DNA of 64,000 nucleotides from Heterodontus francisci (Eukaryota), in NCBI RefSeq assembly GCF_036365525.1, contig NC_090404.1:7812001-7876000 (forward strand), given 5' to 3'. Below are positions 12,635 to 64,000 of this stretch, piece after piece. A program made the position numbers and the translations under genes. Every line of letters starts with the position of its first letter. Positions within the stretch are counted from its first letter, which is position 1. The notes below the pieces were generated by a model, which was not told the origin of the DNA, made no database searches, and saw only the letters and a list, made by a program, of their open reading frames with translations.

Positions 12635-13064
12635 ATGGGAATCCTCCTTGTTTTCACCCTGTGTGTCTGTTTACCCCGTGAATACCGATCAAACAAACCG
12701 ACATTGTGTGGATTTAATCTGAAGCTGCCCGAGTCCTTCTGAATTACAGATACTGTCTGGGGTTTGAGTCTCGTTGTGTGGTTCGGCACTGATGGCCCAT
12801 TAAACTCTCTCTGTTTAATTTCCAGGCTCTTTCAGTCAGTCAGTGACACAGACCCCGGCAGCGGTGACCAGGAAGGAGTGTCAGTCTCTCACCATCACCT
12901 GTGTTTACTTTGGTCATAATCACTTTGAAAATGGATATTTCTTCAGACAGTCCCAGATCGGGAGAGAGTGGGAGCGGAACTCCAGAGGAGGGCGATTTGT
13001 TGAGTCAATGAATAAGGCAGAAAAGACATTTTCGCTGAAATTTCGAGATGTGAGAATTGAAGAC
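12635..13064 (+). pseudogene. NAR-TCR V pseudogene (leader 12635-12677; V exon 12826-13064, 3'-truncated; D and J deleted)
   Basis: Leader MGILLVFTLCVCLP with donor gtgaat and TATAAA ~30 bp upstream. Acceptor ttccag. V reads SFSQSVTQTPAAVTRKECQSLTITCVYFGHNHFENGYFFRQ...FSLKFRDVRIED, then jumps to sequence matching the post-J intron (~51232). No YYC or RSS. Confidence 0.9.
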
Positions 13065-13435
13065 AGATTGGGGAGAAAGTGGGGGCGGATCTATGCTGGA
13101 CAGATTGTTTCAACAGGGTGCTCGGGGAATCCTATCAACATCCCGGACTCTCTCTCTGTCTCTCTCTCTAATTATTGATTGATTTCAACAAAATGAGCAG
13201 ATTGTTGATAAACCAACCTCCATTCCTGGTGTTAACAGTGACTGGCCCTGTGAGCACAGAGCAGGGTCACAGATCTTTCTCCTGGGCAGGAGATTGCAGT
13301 CCAAGCCCGGCAATGTGAAAGAGGTACCCGGAGGGTGAACACATCAGGGGCCAGTGTGATATCTGCAGCGGCCCATTCGACACCTGCAGCAGCAGAAAAA
13401 TGGCAGCACAGCACGCCGGCTTTAGGGACGGAGAT

Positions 13436-25510: not shown

Positions 25511-25563
25511 GGGTTGTGACAGTCACGACCGTCCCGGATCCATCCACGTATCTAGTCTCGGAA
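25511..25563 (-). CDS. NAR-TCR J segment
   Basis: Reads ETRYVDGSGTVVTVTT with phase-1 donor C|GTAAGT. The DGxG FR4 motif is IgNAR-like. Confidence 0.92.
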
Positions 25564-25602
25564 CACGGTGATACCACTCTCAGTCAACCCAGTACAAGAA
25601 CT
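25564..25602 (-). other. J 23-RSS
   Basis: Read outward from J: CACGGTG, 23-bp spacer, ACAAGAACT. Confidence 0.9.
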
Positions 25603-25910
25603 ACCGACACCTCAATCTGCCGGTCACACATCATGAGGTAGTCCAGTTATTCCAGGGATTTTAGATCAATAAATATTCTGCCATGTTTCATATTCCCTGT
25701 CGATTCAAATCGTTCTTTGTGAAACTCTGAGCTGTTGGTAAAATGCCCCAGGAACTCGGGCCGGAGATGGTCGCTTCATAGAATGGGAGAGAAATTTCAG
25801 ACAAAGATAACAGAAAGGAGGAAATTACAATAACCTTAAACCATATTGCAGTGAAAATAACCCTACAATTCAGGATTTGCACCCAGTGGTTTCTATTTTA
25901 ATCGTACAGT

Positions 25911-25980
25911 GGTATTTGTTCAGGTCTGTCCCATCGTGGCCACCCCAGTAAACACAGTGTTTCAAGTCAGCATCAAATCC
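25911..25980 (-). other. NAR-TCR D segment (25939-25952, TTTACTGGGGTGGC) flanked by 12/12 RSSs
   Basis: 5' side GGATTTGAT-12-CACTGTG; 3' side CACGATG-12-ACAAATACC. Paralog at 50557-50571. The core reappears in the joined exons. Confidence 0.88.
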
Positions 25981-26304
25981 CCCGGTACTTGGTGAGATGT
26001 GGAGATATTAGTTAAACGGCTGGGTTGCTGTTTACGGTTCCATCAGTTAGATCAGGATCCCATCTGGTGTCAGGGACTTGTAACTGGTATCAGTCATTCC
26101 CAATTGCCGCTCAGTAACACAAATCCTGGGAAAGACATTACCATCCGCACACACTCAGCATCTATAAAACTCAAGATGTTAACGGCAATAATCCAATCTC
26201 ATTATAAACTAGACTGTGGGGCAGACGGTGGGAGGCGGAACTGTGGGGTTTAACAGCAGATTAACTCCACTTTTTCATTTGTTTCTGTGATAATCTGCAG
26301 TGAG

Positions 26305-26342
26305 AGTTTTTGCACCGCAGGAAGCCGAGGCCCATCACTGTG
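26305..26342 (-). other. NAR V RSS (22-bp spacer, 23 class)
   Basis: CACAGTG-22-GCAAAAACT. Confidence 0.9.
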
Positions 26343-26822
26343 TGTTGTAGTAATACTCAGCTTTACAGTAATAGATGGAGGTGTCTTCAACTCGCAGATC
26401 TCGAATTTCCAGGGAAAATGTCTTTTTTGGCTTATTCACCAATACAACAAATCGCCCTCCACTGGAGATCCGCACCCGCTGCGTCCCGGTCTGGCTTTGT
26501 CTGAAGAAATGTCCATCTTGGAAATAACTTCTTGCAGCACCAGAGGAAAAAACACAGGTGATGGTGAGAGACTGACACTCCTTCCCGGTCACTGCTGGCG
26601 GGGTCTGTGTCACTGACTGACTGAAAGAGCCTGGAAATTAAAATAGAGAGAGTTTAATGAGCCATCAGAGTCGAACCACACAACGAGGCTAAAACCCCAG
26701 ACAGTGCCTGTAATTCGGATGGACTCGGGCAGCTTTATATTAAATCCACACAATGTCGGTTTGTTTGATCGGTACTCACGGGGTAAACAGACACACAGGG
26801 TGAAAACAAGGAGGATTCCCAT
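26343..26822 (-). CDS. NAR-TCR V segment, intact (leader 26780-26822; V exon 26343-26630)
   Basis: Leader MGILLVFTLCVCLP|gtgagt. V reads SFSQSVTQTPPAVTGKECQSLTITCVFSSGAARSYFQDGHFFRQSQTGTQRVRISSGGRFVVLVNKPKKTFSLEIRDLRVEDTSIYYCKAEYYYN. It shows an IgNAR-like CDR2 deletion and an extra FR1 Cys. Confidence 0.93.
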
Positions 26823-29800
26823 CGTTCTGCTGCCTGGAGCTGATAGTTTCTATGATGGGCAGCTGGAGACTGCAGTCCTCGACTGCGCTGGGAGACTGGA
26901 CCTCAGAGCTGGACTGAAATACTTCAGGGGATCGAGTTGATTTGCAGAGGGCAGTGTCCCGGAGATGATTGATGGGCCACACGGTTCCCGGGTCTCTGGC
27001 TGTGTGTTGTGTGAATAAGCGACAGGTTTAAAGAGGGAACCTGCAGCTTTCTGTCGCTTCATTTGGCCTGTGGGCCCGATGTGAAATCCCCTCCTACATT
27101 GGTCTGATGTACAGGGGGTGGGGCTGGGGGAGTTGTTCTGTCAGTAGAGGCTGCCGCCCTCCTTTCCCCCACTGTAATGAGCTGGGAGGTCGCTGCATGT
27201 GTTTTTATTGAGTGGTGTTTGTTGAGGGTGGAATGTGGGCCCAGGACACCGGGAGAATCCCCCCTCCCCGCTCTTATTCCAATACTGCCGGGGATTCTTT
27301 AACATCTCCCTGAACGGGCTGCCGGGGCCTCGGTTAAACGTCTGATCTGAAGGACGGAACCTCAGACCCGGCAGCTTCCCTCCGTCCAGCAACTGAGGAT
27401 ACAATATGAGACAGTCCAGTGACATTGTCAATATCCAGGCAGATGTACACAATGTAGACAAAAAATATACTCTCCCTGTCATTTAAACGAATGTTTCCTG
27501 AATCCTCCCCTTCTGTGGCTTGTGTTCAAAATGTCTCAATCCAGTAATGATGAATTTCCTGGTTTGTAACATTCAGAGTTTCCAGTTGCAGTGACAGAGA
27601 ATGAACCGACACTCGGAAAGACATTGGGGGAACTCTGTGTTTGATGCTTGTGAAGGCTGCTTGCTTAATCTGTACATTGGATACAAACTGAGTCCGACCA
27701 GGCAACACAGTCTGATCAAATAAACCCTGCGAGCAGGCCACGGTGAAAGCCTCCGGGAAACTGACAGAGGAGATGGGAAAAGGACTGCTCAATATTGCAG
27801 GGAAGCACGGAAGAGGCAGCAAAGGACAAAAGGAGACTTCAGGTTCACGGCACGTAACACAAACATGGCCGACCGTCCGTCACACTAAGACGGTCGATGC
27901 TTTAAATGACCTCGCAGCACCGCCAGATCGACGGCCGCGGGGTCTTAATGTCCAGCCAGACCAATTCTTTCTGCTTGATCAGAAACAACTTTAAAGAGCA
28001 CACACAAACTGTTTGCTTAGCACATAATTTTTGCACAAGTATTTATCCAATTCCCGTTTGCTTTTAAATGTTACTATTGAATCTGCTTCTACAGCCCTGT
28101 CAGCCATTGCATTCCCGATCATAAACCGGTTGTTGGCTCAGATGGTGTGCCTCAAGGCTACATCAAAAACCTGTATTTATAAAGCGCTGTTCACGCAATG
28201 AAGCGTCCCCGCAGCAGCAGGTAACGACAGTGATCTGATTGAAACATGAATCCTGCAGATGCGGATGTTGTTGAGAACATAATTCACCGTCTGCACTGTC
28301 AGAACAAGGAACATTATTATCAATATTAATATTACTCAGATTACTGCACAGCTCAATTTTAAAAGACAACAAATCCTTAGAAATAATCGGAAGGAGAAAT
28401 AATGATTGAATTTATTTCAATCCACATTTCAGGGAGGATTTCAAGTCCTTGGAGAGGGGGCAGAGGGGATTTATAGAATGGGAGCAGGGTTTTGGGGCTT
28501 CAGTTCTGCAAAGAGATTAGAGAAGCTGGGATCGCTCCCCTTAAAGCAGAGGGGTCGAAAGGGAGATGTGTTGATAAAAGTGATGGATTATGAAGAGTTT
28601 CAATAGTGTTGATAGTGAGATACTGTTTCCACTGGTAGGATTGTCAACACAGATTTCAGATAATTGGTAAAGGAAGAGGGAGGAGATGAGGAGGTTTTTT
28701 TATGCAGCGAGTTATTCTGAGCTGGAATGAAGTCCCTGAAAGGGCGGTGGAAGCAGATTTCAAAAGGGAATTGGATAATTACTTGAAAAGGAAAGATTTT
28801 CAGAGCTTTGGAGAAAGACCCCGGGAGTGGAACTGATTGGATAGTCCTTTCAACGAGCAATCACGATGGGCCGAAGGGCCTCCTTCTGTCTTGACAGATT
28901 CCAGAATTCAATGAATTTCAGTTGCATCAATCAACAGTTTTACAATTGTGCTCCTGAAGTTGATATTTGTGATATTAGTATATGAAACCTTACCAGCAAG
29001 TGCATTCACCGTTATGGTAAAATTGTAGATACAAAATGTCACCATAGTTCATTAAACATTTTCGTAGCAGTTTGGTTAAAGCAAGTAGATTTCGATTTCA
29101 CAATCAGTGGATTGTGGATTGAACCTCAACTTCAGAGCCTGAGCCTATTAACCAGACTTCAATCAGTGCAGTGCTGAATATGCAATACCTTTCTGAGGAC
29201 AATCTGAACCAATAATCTCTCCCCCTCCATTGACACGGATCGAGCAGGGAGTAGGACTGACTAAATAGCTCCCTGGAGAGCCAGCATGGATTTGATGGGT
29301 TGAATGGCCTCCTTCTGCGCCGGAAATCGCTCTCTGATTCCATGACTCTATGTCTGTTGATGTGGACAATAAAACTGCCATTGTTCCAAACTGTACCCTG
29401 ATCAAAATGTTTTCCTCGAACAGAGATCAACACATATACATTCACAGGAATTGAGCCACTTTGCTCTATTGCTGATATTTATGCGCACAAATCGGCCACA
29501 TTCATCTAAAAATAGTTGCACTTTAAAATCTTTGGGACGTCCTGCAGAGAGTGATGAGATGATACATCAATGCAAATTATATTACTGTACTTAGTCTCAC
29601 CTTTACCTGCCTCCCTCTGTTGGTGTCTCTCTTTATTACTGTACTGAGTGTCCCTTATATCTCTCTCTCTCTGTTGCTCCGTGTATCACTCACTGTACTC
29701 AGTTTCACATTTATCTGCCTCGCTCTGTTGGCGTCTTTCTGTATCACATGTTTTAGTCAGCCCCACCTTTATCTCTATTCCTAATTTCACAGCTCTCTCA

Positions 29801-36477: not shown

Positions 36478-36992
36478 ATGGTTGTTACTTTGTATTCATT
36501 CCTCACAGCTGCAGCTCTCTTAACTGGTAAAGTTTACAAGTTTCCTTTTTCCTTTGAAGGTGTCACGTAGAAAATCTATCTTTTAACTGCTTCCCCTCTA
36601 TTTGCAATGGATTCTGTCACATTTATATTAGTTATAATGAAGTGATAATAGAAGCTTAAAGGTCTGTATTTCTAAATTTCTGCAGGTGTTAGTGGTGCAG
36701 ACTCGGTCTCACAGGGACCAGTTACAGCGAAGCGTTTTGAAGGAGACTCGGTGACCATTAATTACAACTATTCGACAGCTGTTACCCCCGATTCCTTACA
36801 ACTGTACCGCCAAGACCGGGATAACGGCCCCACATTCCTCATCTACATCCCTAACTACGGAAATGTTTTCAGAGCAAACGGCGTGGGCAATCAATTTTCT
36901 GCATCTCTCGACAAGTCGAAAAGTGAGGGGAATTTCACCATCCGCGGCCTGCGGCTGTCTGACAGCGCGATGTATTACTGCGGGCTGAGAGG
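36478..36992 (+). CDS. TCR alpha/delta V segment, open ORF but lacking the first Cys and the conserved Trp (leader 36478-36526; V exon 36686-36992)
   Basis: Leader MVVTLYSFLTAAALLT|gtaaag. V reads GVSGADSVSQGPVTAKRFEGDSVTINYNYSTAVTPDSLQLYRQDRDNGPTFLIYIP...FTIRGLRLSDSAMYYCGLR. Confidence 0.88.
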
Positions 36993-37031
36993 CACAGTGA
37001 CAGGAACCAGAGGGGGCCTCGTACAAAAACA
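36993..37031 (+). other. 23-RSS
   Basis: CACAGTG-23-ACAAAAACA. Confidence 0.93.
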
Positions 37032-38215: not shown

Positions 38216-39078
38216 GCAGCAAACTGTGTGTAAATAAAATGTGAGTCCGGACTAGCTGCGCTGTGAATGTCTGAATAGGACAAATGCTGCTCGGATAGAA
38301 TATTCCTGCAGGACAGGTCCAACAGCTCTGAGTACAGATTTTAGATTTCATTCATTCTATAATGAGGGATGAACAGGTTAAACCGGCGCAGGTTTAAGAG
38401 GCCAACTGACCGTGTATAGTGTGTGTTCCAGTTCAGGTTTCTCCTCTTCACTGCCGATGTATTATTTTCCTGTTTCACGATACTTAAACCAACACTGAAA
38501 CTCACAGCTTTGCTGAGGGTTGGGATTATATTCAAAGGGCTGTAGACTGCCCCTTTTCTGAGTGTTTGATTCATTTCTGTTTGAAGACGACTCACCGACA
38601 GCATTAATTTCATTCTCCTGCAACATTGGAGTTTACACTGAACAATCCACTCGGTCGGGTAGATTTCTTCTAGTCGCTATAGTTAGCGACATAGTGAACA
38701 CATTCTAAAATAATGAGTAACAATTCCGCTGAACTGGCCAGCAGTTGAAATTTTCCATTCAGTTTGTGATGTCGCTAATACAGAGAGACCAGAGGAAATC
38801 TTCCCCTTTGTGCCTCCCCAGTGAAAGGTTAAGGAAAGCCAAACCCCGCCCCTGCTCCCGACACCATCACCCCCACCCCCCAACCCCGCCCCCGGCCCCC
38901 GGCCCCCACACGATCACCAAGCGCCCCCGGTCAATCAGTTCATTGTGAAATTCTGTTTAGTAAGTGGGAGTGAAATAAACTGAACAACATCATCTACATT
39001 CAACACCTGTCACTGTTTTTTTGAGATGACTTCCTTCAGGCCAATTCAAAATCAAACGATTGCACAGTTCGGTTACAG

Positions 39079-41480
39079 GTCAAACTGTCTCTCAGATCAA
39101 TTCGAGATATAATGTCTCTCAGATCAATTAGAGATCCAACTGTCTCTCAAATCAATTAGAGATCCAACTGTCTCAGATCAATTAGAGATCCAACTGTCTC
39201 AGATCAATTAGAGATGAAACTGTCTCCCAGATCAATTCGAGATCCAACTGTCTCTCAGACCAATTAGAGATCCAACTGTCTCTCAAATCAATTAGAGATC
39301 CAACTGTCTCTCAGATCAATTAGAGATCCAACTGTCTCAGATCAATTAGAGATCCAACTGTCTCAGATCAATTAGAGATGAAACTGTCTCCCAGATCAAT
39401 TCGAGATCCAACTGTCTCTCAGACCAATTAGAGATCCAACTGTCTCAGATCAATTAGAGATCCAACTGTCTCAGATCAATTAGAGATCCAACTGTCTCAG
39501 ATCAATTAGAGATGAAACTGTCTCCCAGATCAATTCGAGATCCAACTGTCTCTCAGACCAATTAGAGATCCAACTGTCTCAGATCAATTAGAGATCCAAC
39601 TGTCTCAGATCAATTAGAGATGAAACTGTCTCCCAGATCAATTCGAGATCCAACTGTCTCTCAGACCAATTAGAGATCCAACTGTCTCTCAAATCAATTA
39701 GAGATCCAACTGTCTCTCAGATCAATTAGAGATCCAACTGTCTCTCAGATCAATTAGAGATCCAACTGTCTCTCAGATCAATTAGAGATGAAACTGTCTC
39801 CCAGATCAATTCGAGATCCAACTGTCTCTCAGACCAATTAGAGATCCAACTGTCTCTCAAATCAATTAGAGATCCAACTGTCTCTCAGATCAATTAGAGA
39901 TGAAACTGTCTCCCAGATCAATTCGAGATCCAACTGTCTCTCAGACCAATTAGAGATCCAACTGTCTCTCAAATCAATTAGAGATCCAACTGTCTCTCAG
40001 ATCAATTAGAGATGAAACTGTCTCCCAGATCAATTCGAGATCCAACTGTCTCTCAGACCAATTAGAGATCCAACTGTCTCTCAAATCAATTAGAGATCCA
40101 ACTGTCTCTCAGATCAATTAGAGATCCAACTGTCTCTCAGACCAATTAGAGATCCAACTGTCTCTCAAATCAATTAGAGATCCAACTGTCTCTCAAATCA
40201 ATTAGAGATCCAACTGTCTCTCAGACCAATTAGAGATCCAACTGTCTCTCAAATCAATTAGAGATCCAACTGTCTCAGATCAATTAGAGATCCAACTGTC
40301 TCAGATCAATTAGAGATCCAACTGTCTCTCAAATCAATTAGAGATCAAACTGTCTCTCAGATCAATTAGAGATCCAATTGTCTCTCAGATCAATTAGATA
40401 TCAAACTGTCTCAGATCAATTAGAGATCCAACTGTCTCTCAAATCAATTAGAGATCAAACTGTCTCTCAGATCAATTAGAGATCCAACTGTCTCTCAAAT
40501 CAATTAGAGATCCAACTGTCTCTCAAATCAATTAGAGATCAAACTGTCTCTCAGATCAATTAGAGATCCAACTGTCTCTCAAATCAATTAGAGATCAAAC
40601 TGTCTCAGATCAATTAGAGATCCAACTGTCTCTCAAATCAATTAGAGATCAAACTGTCTCTCAGATCAATTAGAGATCCAACTGTCTCTCAAATCAATTA
40701 GAGATCCAACTGTCTCAGATCAATTAGAGATCCAACTGTCTCTCAAATCAATTAGAGATCAAACTGTCTCTCAGATCAATTAGAGATCCAACTGTCTCTC
40801 AAATCAATTAGAGATCAAACTGTCTCTCAGATCAATTAGAGATCCAATTGTCTGTCAGATCAACTAGAGATCAAACTGTCTCTCAGATCAATTAGAGATC
40901 AAACTGTCTCTCAGATCGATTAGAGATCCAACTGTCTCTCAGATCGATTAGAGATCCAACTATCTCTCAGATCAGTTAGAGATCCAACTGTCTCTCAAAT
41001 CAATTAGAGATCAAACTGTCTCTCAGATCAATTAGAGATCCAATTGTCTCTCAGATCAATTAGAGATCAAACTGTCTCTCAGATCGATTAGAGATCCAAC
41101 TGTCTCTCAGATCGATTAGAGATCCAACTGTCTCTCAAATCAATTAGAGATCCAATTGTCTCTCAGATCAACTAGAGATCAAACTGTCTCTCAGATCAAT
41201 TAGAGATCAAACTGTCTCTCAGATCGATTAGAGATCCAACTGTCTCTCAGATCGATTAGAGATCCAACTATCTCTCAGATCAATTAGAGATCCAACTGTC
41301 TCTCAAATCAATTAGAGATCAAACTGTCTCTCAGATCAATTAGAGATCCAACTGTCTCTCAGATCGATTAGAGATCCAATTGTCTCTCAGATCAATTAGA
41401 GATCAAACTGTGTCTCAGATCAATTAAAGATCAAACTATCTCTCAGATCAATTAGAGATCAAACTGTGTCTCAGATCAAT
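39079..41480. repeat. Tandem satellite, 26/28-bp unit AGATCAATTAGAGATCCAACTGTCTC(TC), ~2.4 kb
   Basis: Direct inspection. Variant units (GATGAAAC..CCC, ATTCGAG, GACCAAT, TCAAATC, GATCGAT) recur in ordered higher-order blocks. Confidence 0.97.
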
Positions 41481-41584
41481 GTCAGATGCAGATGAATATT
41501 TTTGTGGGTCTTTGTCTCTCTGATGAGCAGAAGGCAATGTTAATGTCTCAGATCTCTGGAAAAGAAGCAAATACTTGTGGTTAA

Positions 41585-41731: not shown

Positions 41732-42905
41732 ATGAGGTTGTTCCTGTTCGATGCTTTGCAGGTTGCGGAGACACAAAAACATCCCTCAAATTCCGGAGCA
41801 GCTGTAATACGGTTCCCCGTCCTCGCCTTTTTCTGGGTTTCATTCATTCTCGGTAAGAAATTTAACATTTTTAAAAGGGATTAATTTCCAGAGGAATAAA
41901 TTTTCAGAACAGCGCCTTCATGTTAAACTTGTATCCAACTTGTTTCGACCACAATTGGGTTATTGTGAGCAGTTCTGGTCTCCAGATTGCAACAAGGATA
42001 TCGGGACACGGGAGGAAGTACAAGAAGGATTTGCAAGACTGATACCAGAATTGAGAGATAATTTAGCAAACACCATTGTCAGGCTGAGGCTCTTTTCTCT
42101 AATAAAGAGAAATCTGAAGGGTAACCTGAGAGATATCTTTAAAATGTGATGGAGTTCGTTAGGGCAGAGGGAGTGAAAATGTTTCCACTTGTAGAGAATT
42201 CCAAGTCTATGGGTCATAAATATAAGAGTCACCAAAAACTCCAGTAGGGAATTCTAGAAAAACTTCTTTACCCAGAGAGTGGTGAGAATGTGGAACTCGC
42301 TACCACAAGGAGGGGTAGAGATGAATAGCATAGATGCATTTAAGAGGAAGCTGGATAACCAGAGGATGGAGAAAGGGCTGGAAGGATATGCTGACAGAGT
42401 GAGATAAAGAGGGCTGGAGGATGCTCCTGGGGAGTGTGAATCCTGGTATGGACTAGTTGGGCCGAATGACCTTTTCTGTTTTCCAAATTCTATTGAAATT
42501 TATGAAACACTGACTGCAAATTTTCACCGTCGGTTCGGTTCAGGTGAAGTTTTAACCGATGATTTCCGCTCTCTTTAACCGTGTGTTCTAGACCTGAGTG
42601 ATGGAGATTCTGTTACTCAGCGGGAATCTTCGCTCACACTGACAGAGGGAAAAGTTGTCACTTTAACCTGCACCTATCCCGGCGATGGTTATTACTTCTA
42701 CTAACGATGGTTAGTACCGCCAATACCCAGGCAGACAGACCGAGATTGCAGTCCGGAGGTACACGAGCGGTGATGCTGAATTGAAGGCGGATTTCGCTCA
42801 GGACCGGTTTTCTGATACAGTCCAGCAGTCAGACAAGTTGTACCGATTGACCATCTCGGAGCTGCGGCTGTCTGACACCGCGGTCTATTACTGCGCACTG
42901 AGTCT
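41732..42905 (+). pseudogene. TCR alpha/delta V pseudogene (leader exon to 41852; V exon 42592-42905)
   Basis: Leader ...IRFPVLAFFWVSFIL|gtaaga, in frame with ATG 41732. V reads DLSDGDSVTQRESSLTLTEGKVVTLTCTYPGDGYYFY*, with a 10-bp insertion at the Trp codon, then YRQYPGRQ...LRLSDTAVYYCALS. A CR1 fragment sits in the intron. Confidence 0.88.
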
Positions 42906-42944
42906 CACAGTAATGAGAATGAGCTACAGCCTCGTACAATAACT
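42906..42944 (+). other. 23-RSS
   Basis: CACAGTA-23-ACAATAACT. Confidence 0.85.
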
Positions 42945-49689: not shown

Positions 49690-50204
49690 ATGGGAATCCT
49701 CCTTGTTTTCACCCTGTGCGTCTGTTTACCCCGTGAGTACCGATCAAACAAACCGACATTGTGTGGATTTAATATAAAGCTGCCCGAGTCCATCCGAATT
49801 ACAGTCACTGTCTCGGGTTTTAGTCTCGTTGTGTGGTTCGGCTCTGATGGCTCATTAAACGCTCTCTGTTTAATTCCCAGGCTCTTTCAGTCAGTCAGTG
49901 ACACAGATCCCGACAGCGGTGACCAAGAAGGAGTGTCAGTCTTTCACCATTACTGTTTACTTTGGACATAATTGGGATATTATTCTTTCCAAGATGGACA
50001 TTTCTTCAGACAAACCATGACGGGACAAAGCCGGTGCGGATCTCCAGCGGAGGGCGATTTGTTGTGTCGTTGAATAAAGCAGAAAAGATATTTTCTCTGC
50101 GAATTCAGGATGTGAGGGCTGAAGACACTTCCACCTATTGCTATAAAGCTGAGTACAGATACAACACACGGTGATGGGCCTCGGCTTTCCACGATACAAT
50201 AACT
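49690..50204 (+). pseudogene. NAR-TCR V pseudogene (leader 49690-49732; V exon 49881-50166; RSS 50167-50204)
   Basis: Same leader. The first canonical Cys is deleted, there are frameshifts, and YYC has become YCY. RSS CACGGTG-22-ACAATAACT. Confidence 0.9.
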
Positions 50205-50528
50205 CTCACTGCAGATTATCACAGAAACAAATGAAAAAGCGGAGTTAATCTGTTGTTGCACTCCACAGTTGCGCCTCGCACCGTCTACCCCACAGTCTAG
50301 TTTGTAATGAAGTTGGATTGTTTCCGTTAACATCTTCAGTTTTTTTAAATGCCGAGTGTGTGCGAATGTTGATGTCTTTCCCGGGATTGGTGTCAGTGAA
50401 TGGTGATTGTGAATAATTGACCCTAGTTACAATTCCCTAACATCAAAAGGAATCATGTTCTGACAACGGAACCGGGACCCGCAACCCCGCCGTTTAACTA
50501 ATGTACCCACATCTCACCAAGTAACGGA

Positions 50529-50599
50529 TGATCTGATGCTGATTTGAAACACTGTGTTTACTGGGTTTTGCCACAGTGGGAGAAACCTGAACAAACACC
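50529..50599 (+). other. NAR-TCR D segment (50557-50571, TTTACTGGGTTTTGC) with 12/12 RSSs
   Basis: CACTGTG at 50550-50556 (5' nonamer decayed); CACAGTG-12-ACAAACACC at 50572-50599. Confidence 0.85.
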
Positions 50600-50921
50600 T
50601 TCATACAATTAAAATAGAAATCCCCCGGGAACGGATCCGAAATTGTAGGTTTGATGTTATTATCGCTGTAATCTGGTTTAATTTTGTTGTAATTTCCTAC
50701 TTTCCTTTATCTTTCTTTAACATTTTCTGTTTATGTGAAGCGTTCAACTCCAGCCCGTGTTCCTGGGCCATTTTACTAAGAGCTCAGAATCTCACAAAGA
50801 ACAGTTAGAACAGACAGGGAATGTGAAACATGGAATATTGTTTTTTGATTAAAACCCTCTTGAATAATTGGGCAGCGCCGACTGTCTGATGATGTGTGAC
50901 CGGCAGATTGAGGTGTCGGTA

Positions 50922-51009
50922 GATTTTTGTACCGGGTTGACTGAGAGCTGTGGCACTGTGGTGTATGATTCTGCGGATGGATCGTGGACGGTGGAGACTG
51001 TCACAGCCG
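50922..51009 (+). pseudogene. NAR-TCR J (50961-51009) with 23-RSS, motif altered
   Basis: GATTTTTGT-23-CACTGTG, then VYDSADGSWTVETVTA|gttagt (DGSG changed to DGSW). No supporting V downstream on this strand. Confidence 0.85.
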
Positions 51010-54000
51010 GTTAGTGACTCCAAACCCCGCCATGTTACAGACAGACCCGGATTATGTTCACTTTTTCTTTATTGTGATCAGTATCAACTTAATCCGCTTG
51101 AAAGTAAAACAGAGCGGGTTTCTAATGGAGCTTTTCGGTTGTAATTTTAGATTCGGGCGCAAATTATAAGCCGCGCGTCACCTCCGAGTGTGAATCCAGA
51201 GAAAGGAGATGCGGGAAGTGACGGAGCCGGCAGATCGGGGAGGGAGTCGGGGCGGATCCAACCTGGACTATCAGTGATTTAACAGGGTGCTCGGGGAATC
51301 CCAACAACACCCCGGACTCTCTCTCTCTCTCTAATTATTGATTGATTTCAACGGGTGCACATTGTTGAAAAAACGACCTCCACTCCTGCTGTTAACTGTG
51401 ACTGTTCCTGTGAGCACAGCAGCGGAGTCACAGTTCTTTCTCCTGGGCAGGGGATTGCAGTCCCAGCCGGGCAATATGGAAGAGGTACCCGGAGAGTGAA
51501 CACTGCAGGAGCCGGTGTGATATCTGCAGCGGCCCGTTCGACGCCTGCAGCAGCAGAAAAATGGCAGCACAGCACGCCAGCTTTCGAGACAGAGATCCTG
51601 TTAGAGGTCCAGATAGCATTTTAGTGATCGGCAATCAGTGGCATAAGAATTGTATTTTGCCTGACTTTTATTTCAACGGCCTCCATATAAGCAATCATTT
51701 TCCTCCTTTTCCGTCCCCAGACTGAAATGTGGAAATTTCCAACTGTAGAGACTTCTCCATATTGAATGTCGATGTTTCAGAGATCGGATTGCTGTAATTT
51801 ATCTGTCTCCCTGGTAACTGTTAATTGAAACAGTGGTGGAGAGTGAGCGAGTGAGAGTGAGGTATTAATCTTCTGATAAAGGACACCAGGAGCACCCGAG
51901 TGAACTGGAGGGAAGTCCATTGGGAACCAACAAGAAATTATTCGCTGAAAAGGAGAGCAATATTGGGCGATCACTCGCCGTTCAAAGTACAATCAGAGTG
52001 GAGGTGAGGCTTATTGAGGGAAGGACTGCGGTGGACTTCGGCGTGGAATGTTGTGCACAGTTTTGATCTCCCCGCTTAAGGAAGGATCTACTTGCTTTGG
52101 ATGAAGTGCAACAAAGACTCACTAGATTGATTCCTGAGGGTAAAGGATGGTCCTAGACGGGGAGTTTAACTAGAGTAAGCCTACATTCCCTAAAGGTAAG
52201 TAAAATGAGTGGTGATGCAATTAAAACATATACAATTATTAAGGGCCTTAACAGGGTAGTTGCTGATGTGGTGTTTCCTCAGGATGGGAAGTCTAGAACG
52301 AGGGGTTGCAATATCAGAATAAAGAGTTTGGAACTGAGATGAGGAGAAATATCTTCAGTCAAATAGTTGTTGTGAATCTGTGGTATTCTATACCTCAGGG
52401 AGCTGTGGATGCTCAGTGATTGAGTATATTCCAGGCAATGTTCACTAGATTTTTTGGATATTATAGGAATAAAGGGATATGGGGAGAGTGAGGGAAGGTG
52501 ACGTTGCCGTAAATGAGCCATGATCTTATTGAATGGCAGAGCAGGCTGGATAAGTGGAATAGCCTCCTCCAGCTCCTACTTCTTACTTTATCAGCCTTAA
52601 CATCTTGCACTCCTGGGAAAAGACATCAGCGGCATTCACACTAATCTGGATATTTTCAACAGACTGGGCCTCTTTTCTCTGCAAAATAGAGAACCAATTG
52701 GAAACTTCATCGAAGTCTTTTCAATTATAAATGGATTCAATGGGTGGATGTGGGTGAATTCAGAACAAGGAGCAATTGATACAGAGTAGTCACTAACAGA
52801 ACAAATAAATTCATTTAGAAGAATACATTGCCAAAGAGACACATCGGCAGAATGTGGAACTCGCTGCCACATGGAGTGCTTGGTGCATTGATGCATCTAT
52901 GGGGAGGCTTGAAAAATGCAGGAGGGAGAATTGAATAGAGAGACACTGTGCTCAGTGTGGTAATCCATTATAAGTAGGGAAGTGTTCCTGCAGCTGTACA
53001 GAGCATTGGTTAGGCCACATCTGGAGTACTGTGCACAGTTGTGGTTTCCATACTTGTGAAAGGATATAATTGCAGTAGCAGCAGTTCAGAGAAGGTTCAC
53101 TCGACTGATTCCTGGGGTTATCTTATGAGGAAAGGTTGAGCAGGTTGGGTCTATATCCACTGGAATTTAGAAGATTGAAAGGTGATCTTATTCAAACACA
53201 TAAAATCCTGAGGGAACTTGACAGGGTGGATGCTGACAGGATGTTTCCAATTGTGGGAGATGTAGAACTAAGGGTCACAGTTTAAAAAAATAGTGGCCTC
53301 CCATTTAATAGTGAGATGAGGAGATTTTTTTTTTGTCTCAGAGGGTCGTTACCCTGGCGAATTATCTTTCCCAGAGAGAAGTGGAGGCTGGGTCATTGAA
53401 TATATTCAAGGCTGCGTAAGTCAAGGGTACTGGGGGGCAGACAAGAAAGTGGAGTTCGGGCCACAATCCGATCAGTCATGATCGCATCGAATGGCGGGAC
53501 AGGCTCGAGAGGGAAATGGCCTACTCCTGCTCCTAATTGTTGTGCTGTTGTGGAAGAATTAGTATCTGGGGCGAGGTGGGGTGGGGTGGGGGTTTCGGGG
53601 CTGGTGGTGGAGAGTCAAGTGGAGCACGAACGCAGGCACAGACCAGTTGGGCTAAATAACGTTTCCTGCTCCGCAGCTTCAGGATAAATTAAAATTCTGA
53701 AAACTCCTCCCGGAGAACACGGGAAAGAATCAACCAATGGGCTGAAGGAATTGAAATTGTCAGTGAGCCGGAGGAGCCAGTTCCCAGTGAGTAACAGTAA
53801 AACCACTGCGGAAACGGCACAGACTGAAACCAAACAGACAACTGAGAGAGGTTGGCACAGGATCCCATGATGGCAAAAACCACAAACAGCGCAAAGTAGA
53901 TGTAGAAATGAAATGAAACCAACTGTAACTTTGTCAAATTAAAGAGAAATGGAGAAAATGGACCCCATTGATGGAAGAAAATAGACAAAGAGACCGAAAA

Positions 54001-56105: not shown

Positions 56106-56270
56106 GGTTTTTGTACAGCTCTCTCCGTGCTCTTTATCACTGTGCGTCTGGAATCCCCACCATGTTCAGGTTTTTGTACAGCTCTCTCCGTGTTCTGTAT
56201 CGCTGTGTGTCTGTAATCTCCACCACGTTGAGGTTTTTGGACAGCGCTCTCCGTGTTCTGTATCACTGTG
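56106..56270 (-). other. Three tandem 23-RSSs (63-bp period) of the supporting V
   Basis: CACAGTG-23-CCAAAAACC (56232-56270); CACAGCG-23-ACAAAAACC (56169-56207); CACAGTG-23-ACAAAAACC (56106-56144). Confidence 0.9.
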
Positions 56271-56576
56271 CTGTGCGCTGACTCAGTGCACAGTAATACA
56301 CAGCGGAGTCGCTCAGTTGGAGGTTATAGATTTTTAACCGGCTGATTCTCTCGGCAGGATCGATAGAAGCAGAAATTCGGCCCCCAGCTGTGTTTTCCTT
56401 ATTTTGGTCTCCTGAAGTGTGTCTCTGAAGCAGGTATTTCGGAGCCTGCCCTGGGGACAGACGGTACCAGTGTACTGTGTACTGACAGAACCCTGAATAT
56501 TCGCAGCTTACAGTCACGATGTCACCGGCAGCAGAGGTTTGCAGAGGCGGACTCCGGGACACCAGGGAACCGGAAT
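56271..56576 (-). CDS. Supporting TCR-delta V segment of NAR-TCR (leaderless, open)
   Basis: Acceptor attgcag, phase 1. Reads SGSLVSRSPPLQTSAAGDIVTVSCEYSGFCQYTVHWYRLSPGQAPKYLL...SDSAVYYCALSQRT, with a CDR1 Cys. Confidence 0.92.
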
Positions 56577-59521
56577 CTGCAATATAAAAATGAATATTAT
56601 AGTGTATTTAGCTGCTGTTTTCCCCGAGACACCTGTCAATCACAGACATAGCTCTGACTTCCGCGGTAATGCTGTTCTTCATTTGAATCCCGGTCGAAGT
56701 TTATTCACTTTAATAGGCAATAGAACCAGCTAGGAGCTGCGGAGATATGTATTTACTCAACCTGTTGTTATGATCTGGAATGCACTGCCTGAAAAAGCGG
56801 TGGAAGCAGATTCAATAATAGCTTTCAACAGGGAATTGGATAGATACTGGAGAAGGAAGAATTGGTTGGGCTGTGGGGAAAGAGCAGGGAGAGTGGGACT
56901 AATTGAACAGCTCGATCACAGACAAGATGGGCTGAATGATTTCATTCTGTGTTGTATTATTCTATAATTACTATTAAATTTCTGATTCTATTTTTCTTAG
57001 TGAAAGACAGACAGTGGAAACATTTGAATAATCTGTTCTCCTCACGAAGACAATCACCTTCCAAAAAGAAATGTTTGACCAAGAGTAGCGCAGTTATTTT
57101 ATGTTTAACTGAGCAGAGCAAATGCAACATAATGCAGTGAGAGACATGACAACGATTGAACCAAGTGACGCTTAACATCTTTGTTTAGAAGATTAGAGTT
57201 TAACTACAGTTTCACGCTTCAAGGGGGCTCCTGTTTGCCTCAAGATCTATTTGCTTATTTTGTTCCCAATACGGGGCCCGTTTTGTTCAGTTTCACTTTA
57301 ATCTCGGATTTTAACGGGTACTTTCATTTTATTTATCCGTCTGTATCACTCATCTGGTACTAGTTCCGCTTATTGTCATCATGGGAACTTGTCCCAAAGT
57401 CTCTCAGTTGTCGGTTGGGTTCAGTTTGTGCAGTTTCCGCAGTGGTTTAACTGTTACTGACTGGGAACTGGCTCTTCCTGCTCTCAGACAATTTCAATTC
57501 CTGCAGCCCATTGGCTGAGTATCTACCCTGTTCTCAAAGCGGATTTGCTCTCAGTTTAATATGATCCTGAATCTGCAGATGCGGAATAGGCCATTCGGCC
57601 CAACTGGTCTATGCCAGGGGATTTAATACTCCACAGGAGCCACCTCCCGCTTTAATAGCCTCTTTCCGTCCTGACCTCTTTGTCCCTTTATTCCTTTCTC
57701 CCTCCTGTATTTTCAAGCCTCTCCTAATGTGCATCAATGGCATATTCTCCAACTACTCCCTCTGGCAGCGAGTTCCACGTTCAGACTTCTCTCTGTGTAA
57801 ATAAATTCTTCCTAATGTCTTTCTTTGTTCGGTCGGCGACTATCTTATATTTATGGCTCTTTGTTCTGGACTCTCTGACAATTAAAAGCATTATCTCCAC
57901 CTGTACCCTTTCCAACAACTTTTGCATTTTTTTGCTGTCCACCAGGTCTCCTCGCTGTCTTCTCTTTTCCAGAGATAAGAGCTTGAGGCTGTTCAATCTT
58001 TCCAGATAGGTGTGGATTGCTGTTGATGTCTTTTCTCAGGTATATTAGAAATCCAAAGGTGAGTAAAAGTCAGGAATCCAATCGCAGCCCGTCCCTCCAG
58101 TGAATCTCACTTCCGGGTGTTGTGTTGTATTTGAACAGCCCTGAGATCGGTGTCTCCAAAGCCCTGCCTGACCGGTGAATTCTGGTATGTCTCTCCCTTT
58201 CGTTGAATTATTTCTTGCTGGTATTAAATGGATTTTCTGCCCGTCTGCAGTCGTTCCCCAGGCTGTTCCCTATGCCCTTTTCATAAGAACATGAGTTCCT
58301 CGCTCTCACTTATTCACTGCTCACTGATACTTCATTTAACAGAAGCGTTCCAGCAAACCTATCTCTCAAACATGAAAAATACCTATTCCCTAGAATATCA
58401 CAGAATGTATAGCACAGAACTAGTCCTTTCGGGCCAAATGGTACATTCCGAACCTGCATACACGCTCCTTCATCTCACCCTATCATGATATCATTCTATT
58501 CTTTGCTCCCTCAAATATTACAGGAGCTCCCCCTTGAATGCACTGATTCTGTTCGCAATGGAGAGGGTTAGAGAAGATTTACAAGGATGATACCAGAAAT
58601 GTGGGAATATACATATCAGGAAAGGATGAACAGGGCTGTCTCTCTTTTCTCTTGATAAAAGAAGGCTGAAGTGTGACCAAACAGAGGTATTGTAAATTAT
58701 GGAAGGTTTTGATAAAGTGAACACATAGAGAATATTTCCATTTGTGTGGAAGAATATAAGGTGGTCACAAAGAAATACAATAGGGAATTCAGAAGGAACT
58801 CCTTTATTCAGAGAGTGGTGAGAATGTTAAACTGGCCACCACAGGGAGTGGATGAAACAAATAGTATAGACGCATTTACAAGGAAGCTCGACATCAATAA
58901 GAGAGAAGGGAATAGACCGTTACCATGATAGATTTAGACGAGGAAAGATGGGAAGAGGCCTAATTGAAGCAGAAACGTCAGCATGGACTGGTTGGGCCAA
59001 ATGGCCTGTTTCTGTGTCATATTTCCTATATATGCATTAATTTCACACTTTCCCGCATTATCCTCCATTTGCCACTTTCTTGTCCATTCACTTAACCTAT
59101 CTATATCCCTTTTCAGCGTCTTTGCATCCTCCTCACAACTTACTTTACCTCTTATCTTTCTACTGTCATCAAATTTGGATGTATTACACTCGCTCCCCTC
59201 ATCTAAGTCATTGAGAAAGATTGGAAATAGCTACGGCCCAAGCATAGATCTCTGTGCCACGCCTCCAGTTACACTCTGCCAGCCCAAACATGACCTGTTT
59301 ATTCCTACTCTCTATTTCCTGTCACTCAACTAATCCTAAATCTATGTTAATATATTACTCCCAAACCCATGAGCCCTAATCCTGTGTAACAACCTGCTGT
59401 GTGGCACATTATCGAATGCCTTCTGGAAATCCAAATATACTGCATTCACTGATTCCCTTTTACCTACCCTTCGAGTGAAGCATCAAAAATCTCGAATGGA
59501 TTTGTTTCTCTCTTCAATAAA

Positions 59522-59852
59522 TAGAGTCATACAGCACTGAAACAGGCCCTTCGGCCCACCGAGTCTATGCCGACCAACAACCACCCATTTATACTAATCC
59601 TAAATTAATCCCATATTCCCTACCACATCCCCTCCGACATTAATCCCATATTCCCTACCACCTACCTACACTAGGGGCAATTTACAATGGCCAATTTACC
59701 TATCAACCTGCAAGTCTTTGGCTGTGGGAGGAATTCGGAGCACCCGGTGGAAACTCATGCGGTCACAGGGAGAACGTGCAAACTCCACACAGGTAGTACC
59801 AAGAACTGTAACTGTGAGGTTGCGGTGCTAACCACTGCGCCACGGTGCCGCC
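59522..59852 (-). mobile_element. tRNA-derived V-SINE (HE1-like)
   Basis: Head GGGCGGCACCGTGGCGCAGTGGTTAGCAC (A box), V-domain 'tgtgtggagtttgcacgttctccc' and a CR1-like tail. Absent from block A. Confidence 0.8.
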
Positions 59853-62084
59853 CTGTTGATTCTGCCTAATCAAATTATGATTTTCCAATTACACTCTTAC
59901 CACTACCCCAATAACAGATACTAATATTTTCTACATTACTGATGCTAACTGACTCTATTTTCTCTATCCCTCCTTTCTTGAACCATGGGGTTACATTTTC
60001 TACCTTCCATTCCACGGGTACCGTTCTCGAATTTAGAGGATTCTGAGATCACCCAATAGTTCCACTATTGCTCCAGATACTTCTTTTAAAACCCTAGGAT
60101 TAGGCAATCGGTTCTAGGGGATTTATGAGCTTTTGTTCCCATTAATTTTCCAGTATCTGACAGCTCTGATTCTGCACAATTTCCGGGTTTTTTTCTCTGA
60201 GTTCTCTACTGTAAAAGCAGAGACTAAGTATCTGTTTAAAGTGTCTGCCATTTCCTCGTCCCCAATTACAACTTCTCTTGTCTCTGCTTCTAAGAGCCCA
60301 CGTTTATTTTCACTATTCTCTTCCTTTCAACATATTTGTAAAAGTTCTTACAATCTTTGATTTAATTTTTCTTCCTAGTTTATTCTCAATTATTATTTTC
60401 TCCTTCTTTATTATTTTATGGTCATCCTTTGATGATTTGTGAAACCCTCCCAATCTTCAGACTTGCTACCCTGACAACATTGTAAGCCTTTTATTTAAAT
60501 ATTATACTATCCTTAACTTTATTGGATTTTCCATTGCTATACCACTTATCCAGTGACATTTTCTATTCCTCAATGGAATGCATGTGCGTTGACAATTCGG
60601 AATAATTTATTTAAATGTTTGTCATTGCTTAGCGACCATTATATATTTTAATCAAATCTCAAACTCTAACTCAGCCATCATTCATTGCCCTTGTTCAAAT
60701 TTAAGGCCCTGGTTGCGGGCTTAACCACTTTACTCTGAAATTGAATAGGACATCTAGCATGAATCCTTTACTTTAACTTTATGAATTAATAGTCTCGTTA
60801 CAAAATACTAGATCTAAACAATCGATTCTGCAGTTAGCTTCCTCGACATATTGTTCGAGAACATATTGAATGTGTTCCAAAAACTCGTCCTCCAATCTAC
60901 TTTTGTCAATTTGCTTTGCCCACTCGATATAAAGATTACATTCCCCCATGATTTTTGCATTCACCATGTTACATGCTCCTCTAACTTGCTGATTTATACT
61001 CTGTCTAACACTATGGTTGTTTTTAAATGCTCCGGCCTTTTCTCCACTTTGTCATTTCGTAGCTCCATCATACTGATTTTAGATCCTGACTTTTTGGTCT
61101 AATTTCAGTTCTCACTAGTGCCTTTATCTCATTCTTTATTATCAGGTATATCCCACTTTTTTTCATTTTTTCTGGCTTTTTCAAAAGTCAAATACCCCTG
61201 TATATTTAGTTTTCAACTTTGGTCACCATGTAACCGTATCTCATTAATGGCGACTGGATCGAATACATTAATCTGTATTTGTGCCATTAATTCACCTGTT
61301 CTTGTTATGAATGTTTCGTGCGTTCAATTAAAACGCCTTTCATTTTAACTTGTGACTATTTTCCCTGATTTAGCCTTCGTCTTCAGGCCCTATTACCGTT
61401 ATTAAACCATCTGTCTCTTTCTGACTCAAACTGCTGGATTTTATCCGGATCGTTACTCTGCTCTACAGCCTTGACTTGTTTTTTCAAATTTATTAATTTA
61501 GCATTGGGATTATATTGTATCCCTTATTTAACTGTTGGTATCGGATCGGCCGCTGAAGGTATAAAAGGGGACGATGTAGTGTTGGACTCACACTCCCGGT
61601 ACCTCATTCACGCTGTCCGGCCCGGAATGGAATATTCTGCCGAAGAGAGAAAGAGCTCGGTCACCCTGTCCCGTGCTCAACAGGGGCAGGCTGAACTTCC
61701 TCAGTCACAGTGAACAGCGGGAGCGGCGGCCAGTGTCTCGACAATCTGCGCTCATTTAAACTAACTGTAGATCAGAGTGAGAAAGAGTCAGGGATGTTTT
61801 GGGGATTCTCCCTGGTCCACGTTAAACCACTGATGTTCCAGATGTGGTCAGCGCCCCACAGACTGCCTTCTCTGTGAGGATCTCACCTCCTCTCCAAACT
61901 CAAACCTGGACCAAACTTCCGGTTCACATTTTACTCCGAATCACAAACTGCAATGAAAAAGTTCCATCAGGGAACTGATCTGTTTTATTTTTAAGGGATT
62001 GAGGTGATATTGAGAGCGATTATAAACTGACGGTGAACATTCATTCTGATAGTCTGTCAAACGGCGGGTTTTGCAGTCACTTAC

Positions 62085-62426
62085 CGGCTGTGATCGTCAC
62101 CACCGTCCCGGATCCATCCACGTATCTAGTATCCACCCCAGTGCCGTCGTACTCAGCTTTACAGTAATAGGTGGCGCTGTCTTCAACTCTCACATCTCCA
62201 ATTTTCAGGGAAAATGTCTTTTCTGCCTTATTCACCGACACAACAAATCGCCCTCCACCGGAGATCCGCTCCCGCTCCGTCCCGGTCTGGGTTTGTCTGA
62301 AGAAATGTCCATTTTTGAAATAATGGCATGAATTACCAGAGTCAAAAACACAGGTGATGGTGAGAGACTGACACTCCTTCCTGGTCACCGCTGCCGGGGT
62401 CTGTCTCACTGACTGACTTAAAGAGT
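62085..62426 (-). CDS. Germline-joined NAR-TCR VDJ exon (342 nt, open, leaderless)
   Basis: Acceptor ttccag and donor G|GTAAGT. Reads SLSQSVRQTPAAVTRKECQSLTITCVFDSGNSCHYFKNGHFFRQTQTGTERERISGGGRFVVSVNKAEKTFSLKIGDVRVEDSATYYCKAEYDGTGVDTRYVDGSGTVVTITA. No RSSs. Confidence 0.93.
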
Positions 62427-63209
62427 CTGGAAATTAACCAGAGAGAGTTTAATGGGCCATCGGAGCCGAAAAACACAACGGGTTAAAACCCCTGATTTAG
62501 CCTGAGTCTCCCGGGCCCTATTACCGTTATTAAACCATTTGTTCCTTCCTGCTTCAAACAGCTGGATTTTATCCTGATCGGTACTCTGCTCTAGAGCTTT
62601 GATTTATCTTTTCAAATTTACTAAATTAGCATTGGGATTATATTGTATCCTCTATTTAACAGTCGGAATCGGATAGGCTGCTGCAGGTATCAAAGGGACA
62701 GCTTAGTGTTGGTTTCATTCGTCCGGAACTTCATTCACACTACCTGGCCGGGAATGGATTATTCTGCCTAAGACAGAGAGAGAGCTGTCACCCTCTTCCG
62801 GGCTCTCAGGGACAGACAGAGCTTCCTCAGTCACAGTGAACAACGGGAGCGGCGGCCGGTGTCTCGACAATCTGCGCTCATTTCAACTAACTTTGGATCA
62901 GAGTGAGAAGGAATCAGGGATGCTTTGGGGATTCTCCCTGGTCCACGTTATACTGCTGATGTTCCAGATGCAGTCAGAGCCCCGCAGACTGCCTTCACTG
63001 GGGGATCTCACCTCATCTCTCCGAACTAAAACCTGGACCAAACTTCCGGTTCACAGCTTACTCCGAATCACAAACTGCAATGAAAAAGTTCCATCAGGGA
63101 ACTGCTGTTTTATTTTTAAGGGATTGAGGTGACACTGATCGCGATTATAAACTGAAGGTGAACATTCACTCTGATAGTCTGTAACACGGCGGGTTTTGCA
63201 GTCACTTAC

Positions 63210-63551
63210 CGGCTGTGATCGTCACCACCGTCCCGGATCCATCCACGTATCTAGTATCCACCCCAGTGCCGTCGTACTCAGCTTTACAGTAATAGGTGGC
63301 GCTGTCTTCAACTCTCACATCTCCAATTTTCAGGGAAAATGTCTTTTCTGCCTTATTCACCGACACAACAAATCACCCCCCGTCGGAGATCCGCTCCCAC
63401 TCCGTCCCGGTCTGGGTTTGTCTGAAGAAATGTCCATTTTTGAAATAATGGCATGAATTACCGGAGGAAAAAACACAGGTGATGGTGAGAGACTGGCACT
63501 CCATCCTGGTCACCGCTGCCGGGATCTGGTTCACTGACTGACTTAAAGAGT
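63210..63551 (-). pseudogene. Second germline-joined NAR-TCR VDJ exon (342 nt) with an in-frame stop
   Basis: Same CDR3/J and splice sites as 62085-62426. CGA has become TGA at 63373-63375 (ISDGG*F). Confidence 0.9.
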
Positions 63552-64000
63552 CTGGAAATTAATCAGAGAGAGTTTAATGGGCCATCAGCGCCGAAAAACA
63601 CAACTGGTTAATACCCCTGATTTAGCCTGAGTCTCCCAGGCCCGACCGTTATTAAACCATCTGTCCCTTCCGGACTCAATCTTATCCGGATCGGTACTCT
63701 ACTCTACAGCTTTGATTTATCTTTACAAATTTACTAAATTAGCATTGGGATTATATTTTATCCCCTATTTAACTGTTGGTATCGGATAGGCCGCTAAAGG
63801 TATTAAAGGGACCGCTTTAATGTTGGGTTCATTCTCCTGATACCTCATTCAAACTGCCCGACCCGGAATGAAATATTCTGCCTAAGGGGGAGCGCTGTCA
63901 CGCTCTCGCGTGCTCACAGGGACAGACAGAGCTTCCTCAGTCACAGTGAACATCGGGAGTGGAGGCCGGTGTCTCGACAATCTGCGCTCATTGAAACCAC

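Follow-up and report, generated by a model that had tools for sequence, protein, structure and literature searches.

The 64,000-nt stretch of Heterodontus francisci DNA analysed here (the window: NC_090404.1, positions 7,812,001 to 7,876,000) is, judged from its sequence, a shark NAR-TCR (TCR delta) cassette, NAR-TCR being the doubly rearranging TCR delta of sharks in the accessible portions of PMC1845163 and PMC3457774. It contains two copies, A and B, of an exon in which NAR V, D and J are already joined (Table 1). Domain assignment makes exon A a V-set domain, identical to residues 82-195 of gene model P0003 and with a C-terminal reading of YYCKAEYDGTGVDTRYVDGSGTVVTITA; its nine top PDB matches are VNAR or NAR domains, the best with an E value of 5e-23. 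Both copies have the A-B loop cysteine (ECQSLTITC), given as a NAR-TCR V feature in the accessible text of PMC1845163; exon A has FFRQ where WYRK is expected, the canonical Trp being missing. The leader exon that a NAR-TCR V has of its own is absent from A and B and present at three unjoined Vs, and instead of being somatically rearranged the two copies are pre-joined and free of RSS, so that they are NAR-TCR-derived exons rather than canonical NAR-TCR V genes. The original prediction, made from the letters alone, had missed both the NAR-TCR identity and the leaderless state of the copies.

The supporting V delta sits 5.5 kb downstream of exon A, with no leader seen, and no C delta was identified within the 64-kb window. 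Comparison was with an unjoined paralogue laid out as V-23/12-D-12/23-J, the unjoined NAR content of the window amounting to this one complete cassette and two damaged NAR Vs. A NAR V with leader at 12826-13066 (+) is cut off in FR3 and joined to DNA like the post-J region at 51 kb, apparently by a deletion that took V end, D and J without use of an RSS; an inverted unjoined NAR cassette at 49881-51011 (+) has a frameshifted V with YCYKAE replacing YYCKAE. Conventional TCR alpha/delta-like V segments lie among the NAR cassettes (36700-37031, 38157 and 42600-42944, +), two of them with a 23-spacer RSS, and self-comparison of the window revealed tandem repeats of ~28 nt each at 39036-41488. Each supporting V is followed by a tandem series of 63-nt units (56270-56106 and 18183-18082, -), every unit consisting of 24 nt and an RSS with a 23-nt spacer; the three RSSs at 56 kb and the two at 18 kb could be alternative V ends permitting a longer CDR3 or simple duplications.

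Table 1. Joined exons, their surroundings and the unjoined cassette used for comparison (positions in the window)
Feature	Position	Strand	Remarks
Joined NAR-TCR V-D-J exon, copy A	62085..62426	-	342 nt with open frame; both ends in phase 1; without leader
V portion of copy A	62149..62426	-	~10 nt shorter than unjoined V ends
GACGGC insert of copy A	62143..62148	-	N addition or donor V end as candidate sources
D-derived 10 nt, ACTGGGGTGG	62133..62142	-	Relative to D 25952-25939 trimmed by 3 nt 5' and 1 nt 3'
AT linking D and J	62131..62132	-	0-2 nt untemplated, depending on donor J
J portion of copy A	62085..62130	-	GTAAGT donor next
CDR1 cysteine codon	62326..62328	-	Likewise in copy B
Tract of 189 nt identical in A and B	62061..62249	-	Spans FR3, CDR3, J, donor
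Joined exon, copy B	63210..63551	-	CDR3 as in A, in-frame TGA at 63375-63373, without leader
B-A intron, 783 nt	62427..63209	-	Post-J intron fused near 62490 to 3' end of V intron
Intron upstream of B	63552..64000	-	Mosaic as in B-A intron; record 14 of run X4 matches B flank
Intron from copy A J to supporting V delta	56577..62084	-	
Supporting V delta	56232..56576	-	V as 56576-56271; CDR1 Cys, 23-spacer RSS, P0003 residues 195-299
Unjoined reference cassette	25511..26830	-	Leader, V 26630-26343, D 25952-25939, J 25563-25511, RSS on each
Supporting V of unjoined reference cassette	18489-18184	-	

When the minus-strand letters were re-read, the junction proposed in the original prediction (trimmed V, GACGGC, 10 nt of D, AT and J) was found as described, and in frame. 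The proposed exact D match also stands, the 10-mer occurring within the window in both junctions and in D 25952-25939 and nowhere else; when the 18-nt insert was shuffled 200,000 times with its composition preserved, a match of at least 10 to that D arose 50 times. The two complete unjoined V ends of the window extend 10 nt beyond the joined V end before their heptamer. No RSS is present at the joint and both RSS-bounded spacers, which account for ~780 nt in the unjoined paralogue, are lost; the post-J intron is kept behind the joined exons. The proposed match to J 25511-25563 is a similarity (41 of 46 positions), but an identity of that order points to a paralogue and not to the donor. With the joined V 88% identical to the visible V, both visible segments are, on sequence comparison, paralogues of the joined exon rather than its donors.

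That there are two copies with a single CDR3, differing at 13 of 342 positions, was confirmed by ungapped comparison (zero gaps; repeat unit 1,125 nt). The earlier reading had overlooked the TGA in copy B and the clustering of the differences, all 13 of which fall within the first 177 nt and are followed by the 189 identical nt, a run whose probability given the flanking divergence is near 6e-7. The introns, in their distal part, agree at only 84-88%, against 95% for the Vs; the tandem therefore probably has a greater age than 13/342 implies, and the array, going by its sequence, has probably been partly homogenised. The order of joining and duplication is left unfixed by the comparison of A with B, with duplication after the join being likely. 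Judging by its composition, the intron upstream of B begins behind a further J, whose donor would lie near 64,320-64,410, beyond the window. A third joined copy, suggested by contig ends, was dropped because the run concerned, X4, has coverage holes.

Of the intron sequence that the original prediction had taken to be retained, the post-J part is there, more than 700 nt of it in both copies. Retention of the leader-V intron did not hold up: upstream of each acceptor only ~65 nt are clearly V-intron-like, sequence further out is post-J intron with a breakpoint near 62490, and no leader exon is nearby. Leader-exon matching across the 64-kb window found none upstream of A or B, the only matches, at 26830, 12629 and 49682, preceding the three unjoined Vs. 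Twelve nt of the post-J intron do match the leader donor region (equalled in 9 of 2,000 shuffles); the match is seen at a leader-like distance from an acceptor at 62585-62495, 63700-63620, 61460-61365 and 24800-24725 (-). In a search for a relic leader intron, 4 of 12 global comparisons fell under 50 of 1,000 shuffles, the segments having been picked post hoc.

P0003 is the RefSeq model XP_067869961.1 of Heterodontus francisci and includes both exon A and the supporting V at 56 kb, each 100% identical. Its first 26 residues have no coding match in the window; they resemble a translation of the unjoined paralogue's spacer, heptamer and J, and their last residues are like those of the joined J. 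Such a start, read as RSS and J read-through, means that the model sets an unjoined J upstream of the joined exons. The resulting order, rearranging J, fixed NAR V and then supporting V delta, recalls marsupial TCR mu, though with introns retained. We infer the position of that J, since P0003 is a predicted gene and the window showed no canonical acceptor by which it would enter copy B. A leaderless copy can only be used via splicing from an upstream J, such as the one that the model supplies. A single-sequence fold of P0003 was uninformative (mean pLDDT 38.5).

Is the join germline or somatic? Twenty-four sequencing runs are listed, of which five have at least half of the words; these five come from a single sample, possibly the source of the assembly. 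Four runs were aligned to 61950-63070; the three other samples of the species, being capture or RAD libraries, were not. Run X4 is a DNA run, statements about it drawing on the best 8 of 161 records, and X5 was taken by guess as an RNA run, with no RNA run on record. A 142-nt X4 contig (62101-62242) spans V, insert, D and J with 0 differences at a depth of 14.4; an A-specific flank contig (record 15) crosses the breakpoint near 62490 with 0 differences at a depth of 5.6; and a third, of depth 5.0, equals the B flank in length (223 nt), mismatches (17) and gaps (12). Both copies are thus supported by X4 contigs outside the assembly. The junction depth of 14.4 against 5.0-5.6 at the flanks fits the presence of the joined exon in bulk DNA at germline level, with the tool's own warning that contig depth from assembled runs does not equal copy number; from a rare lymphocyte clone a depth above that of the flanks would not be expected. 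Loose ends in X4, X5 and X6 show unjoined V ends leaving the join at exactly 62149, with a heptamer after 10, 13 and 16 nt respectively. As the join is seen in one sample, perhaps the assembly's own source, its inheritance across animals is extrapolated from this sample only.

A search of relatives for the CDR3, proposed with the original prediction, told against the germline reading. Related organism B yielded unjoined V only, 95% alike (8 of 174 positions different) and with a normal leader intron, in three low-depth contigs, and the CDR3 was present in 1 of 53 longer protein matches, that one being the locus's own model P0003. A near-length protein search returned just two unjoined V relatives, and of 171 pattern matches in a scan of metagenome contigs none was confirmed. 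In run X15 (organism C) a loose end at 62149 continues from the V end into G-rich letters resembling D, and its 30 nt contain no heptamer; it comes from two contigs with an agreement of 0.63 and could be another germline join or else a consensus of mixed sequences.

The array consists of joined NAR-TCR V-D-J exons, tandem and leaderless. We hold with good confidence that they derive from a RAG-type deletional join in a germ cell, and they were likely later duplicated. The spacers gone, the ends trimmed, the D kept and the frame open make up the product expected of RAG; from the trimming of the ends we infer RAG activity in germ cells. Joining in germ cells is documented for shark Ig, horn shark included, in the accessible portions of PMC2193156 and PMC2193153. 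The join would have occurred once, in a germ-line cell, with unequal crossing-over at a breakpoint near 62490 then placing the exon behind a J intron and dropping the leader; later conversion would account for the 189 nt identical in A and B, copy B would then have been killed by its stop codon, or must be skipped, and intact copy A alone is predicted to be spliced in as an extra invariant domain. What the original prediction had argued, a germline join at the DNA level, later duplicated and not retroposed, is upheld by the anatomy and by the junction and flank contigs of X4, from one sample, with duplication as the likely later step.

Retroposition of a rearranged transcript, the origin proposed for the marsupial V-mu-j, would suit the absence of a leader and a location behind J that recalls TCR mu. 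However, the marsupial case rests, in the accessible text of PMC2275272, on a missing intron, and here each of the two copies retains ~65 nt of intron on the acceptor side together with over 700 nt of post-J intron; a spliced copy would carry its leader fused to V, which neither A nor B does. With intron flanking the joined exon on both sides retroposition is disfavoured, and we regard it as extremely improbable. Hardly more probable is a chance fusion of V, D and J by two ordinary RAG-independent deletions: it would be in keeping with the lack of visible P nucleotides, all coding ends being trimmed, but it would need four breakpoints within ~10 nt of RSS borders while keeping the D and leaving the frame open. 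Scarcely better placed, and very unlikely, is a somatic lymphocyte allele captured in the assembly, with the tandem an assembly artefact. The join was found in one sample only, and 6 of the 13 differences between A and B form doublets of neighbouring positions (p 0.045 over 177 nt), tandem changes marking shark somatic hypermutation (PMC5931798). Yet a non-coding control duplicate shows a similar doublet excess (p 0.011), the X4 junction contig is deeper than the single-flank contigs and both breakpoints are present in X4, the A and B introns differ by 12-16%, and removal of a leader is not a product of V(D)J joining. Doublets as a hypermutation signature were discarded, 3 of 10 comparisons having p < 0.05 with the non-coding control among them.

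Did TdT take part in the RAG-type germ-cell join that we favour? The original prediction had assumed so, with N-like letters in the insert, but the window does not include the end of the donor V, and Y-D and D-G-T read-throughs of V ends are met with in gene models of other sharks, so that N addition is not established; we put it a little short of an even chance. GACGGC on the minus strand of the window is confined to the two junctions. A RAG join without TdT, GACGGC being the donor V's own end, is compatible with the favoured account and about evenly poised. Models P0024 (Y-D) and P0033 (D-G-T) show such residues, at the protein level, before apparent heptamer read-through, and little evidence of TdT is reported for nurse shark germline joints in the accessible text of PMC2193156. 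Against it, none of five unjoined V ends at the DNA level (two in the window, three loose ends) begins GAC, and the insert is G+C at 5 of its 6 positions.

What might copy A do? It has both canonical cysteines, every exon is of phase 1, and splicing of an upstream J to A and of A to the supporting V would consequently be in frame, B being skipped of necessity. Its CDR1 cysteine is matched in 1 of 54 other parsed NAR Vs, at another position, and in 46 of 48 supporting Vs, counts that omit two proteins that failed parsing; the CDR3 of A and B is without cysteine. CDR1 and A-B loop cysteines are putative interdomain bridges in the accessible portion of PMC1845163, so exon A has both halves of the putative link, a pattern spotted after the fact and a single event. 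In a TCR delta chain of four domains (rearranged NAR V, invariant joined NAR V, supporting V delta, C delta) the CDR1 cysteine of exon A would pair with the A-B loop cysteine of the rearranged NAR V stacked on it, and its own A-B loop cysteine would bond the supporting V. Use of exon A as a protein domain is doubtful, and a four-domain chain would be unlikely. Also compatible with a germ-cell RAG join, and in our judgement slightly on the probable side, is that the array is a decaying relic, skipped or disabling its cassette. Copy B has a stop yet intact splice sites, damage is seen in further NAR Vs of the window, and in X5 the letter of the joined J at 62095 accounts for at most 38 of 364 depth units. 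Telling against a relic are the open frame, canonical cysteines and in-frame splice phases of copy A, the rarity of the CDR1 cysteine among NAR Vs, and an 81-nt X5 contig identical to the FR3 of A and B at a depth of 134, though an unjoined twin V may be its source. Among 8 of 84 X5 records there was no RNA contig spanning the junction; loose ends in X5 include some J spliced to supporting V (1 mismatch in 30).

If such a four-domain chain were real, a TCR mu-like architecture would have been reached via germ-cell RAG, perhaps with TdT, and possibly recurrently in sharks. Table S1 of PMC12227049 gives great white shark LOC121270133 the label 'NARTCR V(gj)V(gi)V'; the accessible main text of that paper neither discusses it nor names the horn shark. 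In model P0004, presumably of that locus given an identical NCBI description, the supporting V is preceded by two NAR V-J units, with another CDR3 than the horn shark exon and a parsed V without the CDR1 cysteine; as its V-J links resemble RSS read-through, a true join is only one possible meaning of the label. V-J links in gene models of other sharks were set aside as evidence of joining, 39 of 51 showing RSS-like read-through by a loose pattern and all being protein models only. White shark and basking shark models P0010 and P0015 have an identical V-J link, a conserved join or a shared gene-model artefact.

With shark NAR-TCR the locus shares a NAR V with an A-B loop cysteine and without the canonical Trp, a D and J of its own, and a leaderless supporting V delta with a CDR1 cysteine; it differs in that the NAR V-D-J is pre-joined, leaderless and tandem and has a CDR1 cysteine. 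Germline joining is known in shark Ig (PMC4279169 and PMC5192425, accessible portions), and nurse shark NS4 and IgM1gj and the VDJ-joined IgH of horn shark have the same loss of RSS, trimmed ends and kept introns, some being pseudogenes; the present case, in contrast, lies in a TCR locus, lacks a leader and has a possibly N-like insert, the NS4 joints giving little evidence of TdT. In the newt Pleurodeles waltl a pre-joined TCR delta V, the TRD V-J, is likewise leaderless and borrows an upstream leader (PMC12698447, accessible part), with a conventional V, no D in the locus, and expression that was demonstrated there. As far as the accessible texts go, joining in germ cells was held in a 2016 review to be peculiar to Ig genes of cartilaginous fish (PMC5192425), marsupial TCR mu was in 2023 called the only TCR with a germline-joined V (PMC7615758), and the newt TCR delta case followed in 2025 (PMC12698447). 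Paper titles and abstract openings yielded no description of a germline-joined shark TCR, and supplements may bear on priority; the horn shark locus offers the nucleotide-level anatomy of one with its introns kept, and makes testable both the action of TdT in germ-line joins and the recruitment of a fixed joined V as a supporting domain. The marsupial V-mu-j resembles exon A in that its V is joined and fixed and comes after a V-D-J that rearranges (PMC7615758, PMC3457774, accessible portions), but is VH-like, without a V intron and ascribed to retroposition, and it replaces the supporting V to which the horn shark exon is additional. A and B show neither the lost V intron nor the fusion of leader to V that characterise V-mu-j, and with its introns kept the horn shark join indicates that an exon of the V-mu-j kind can arise without retroposition.
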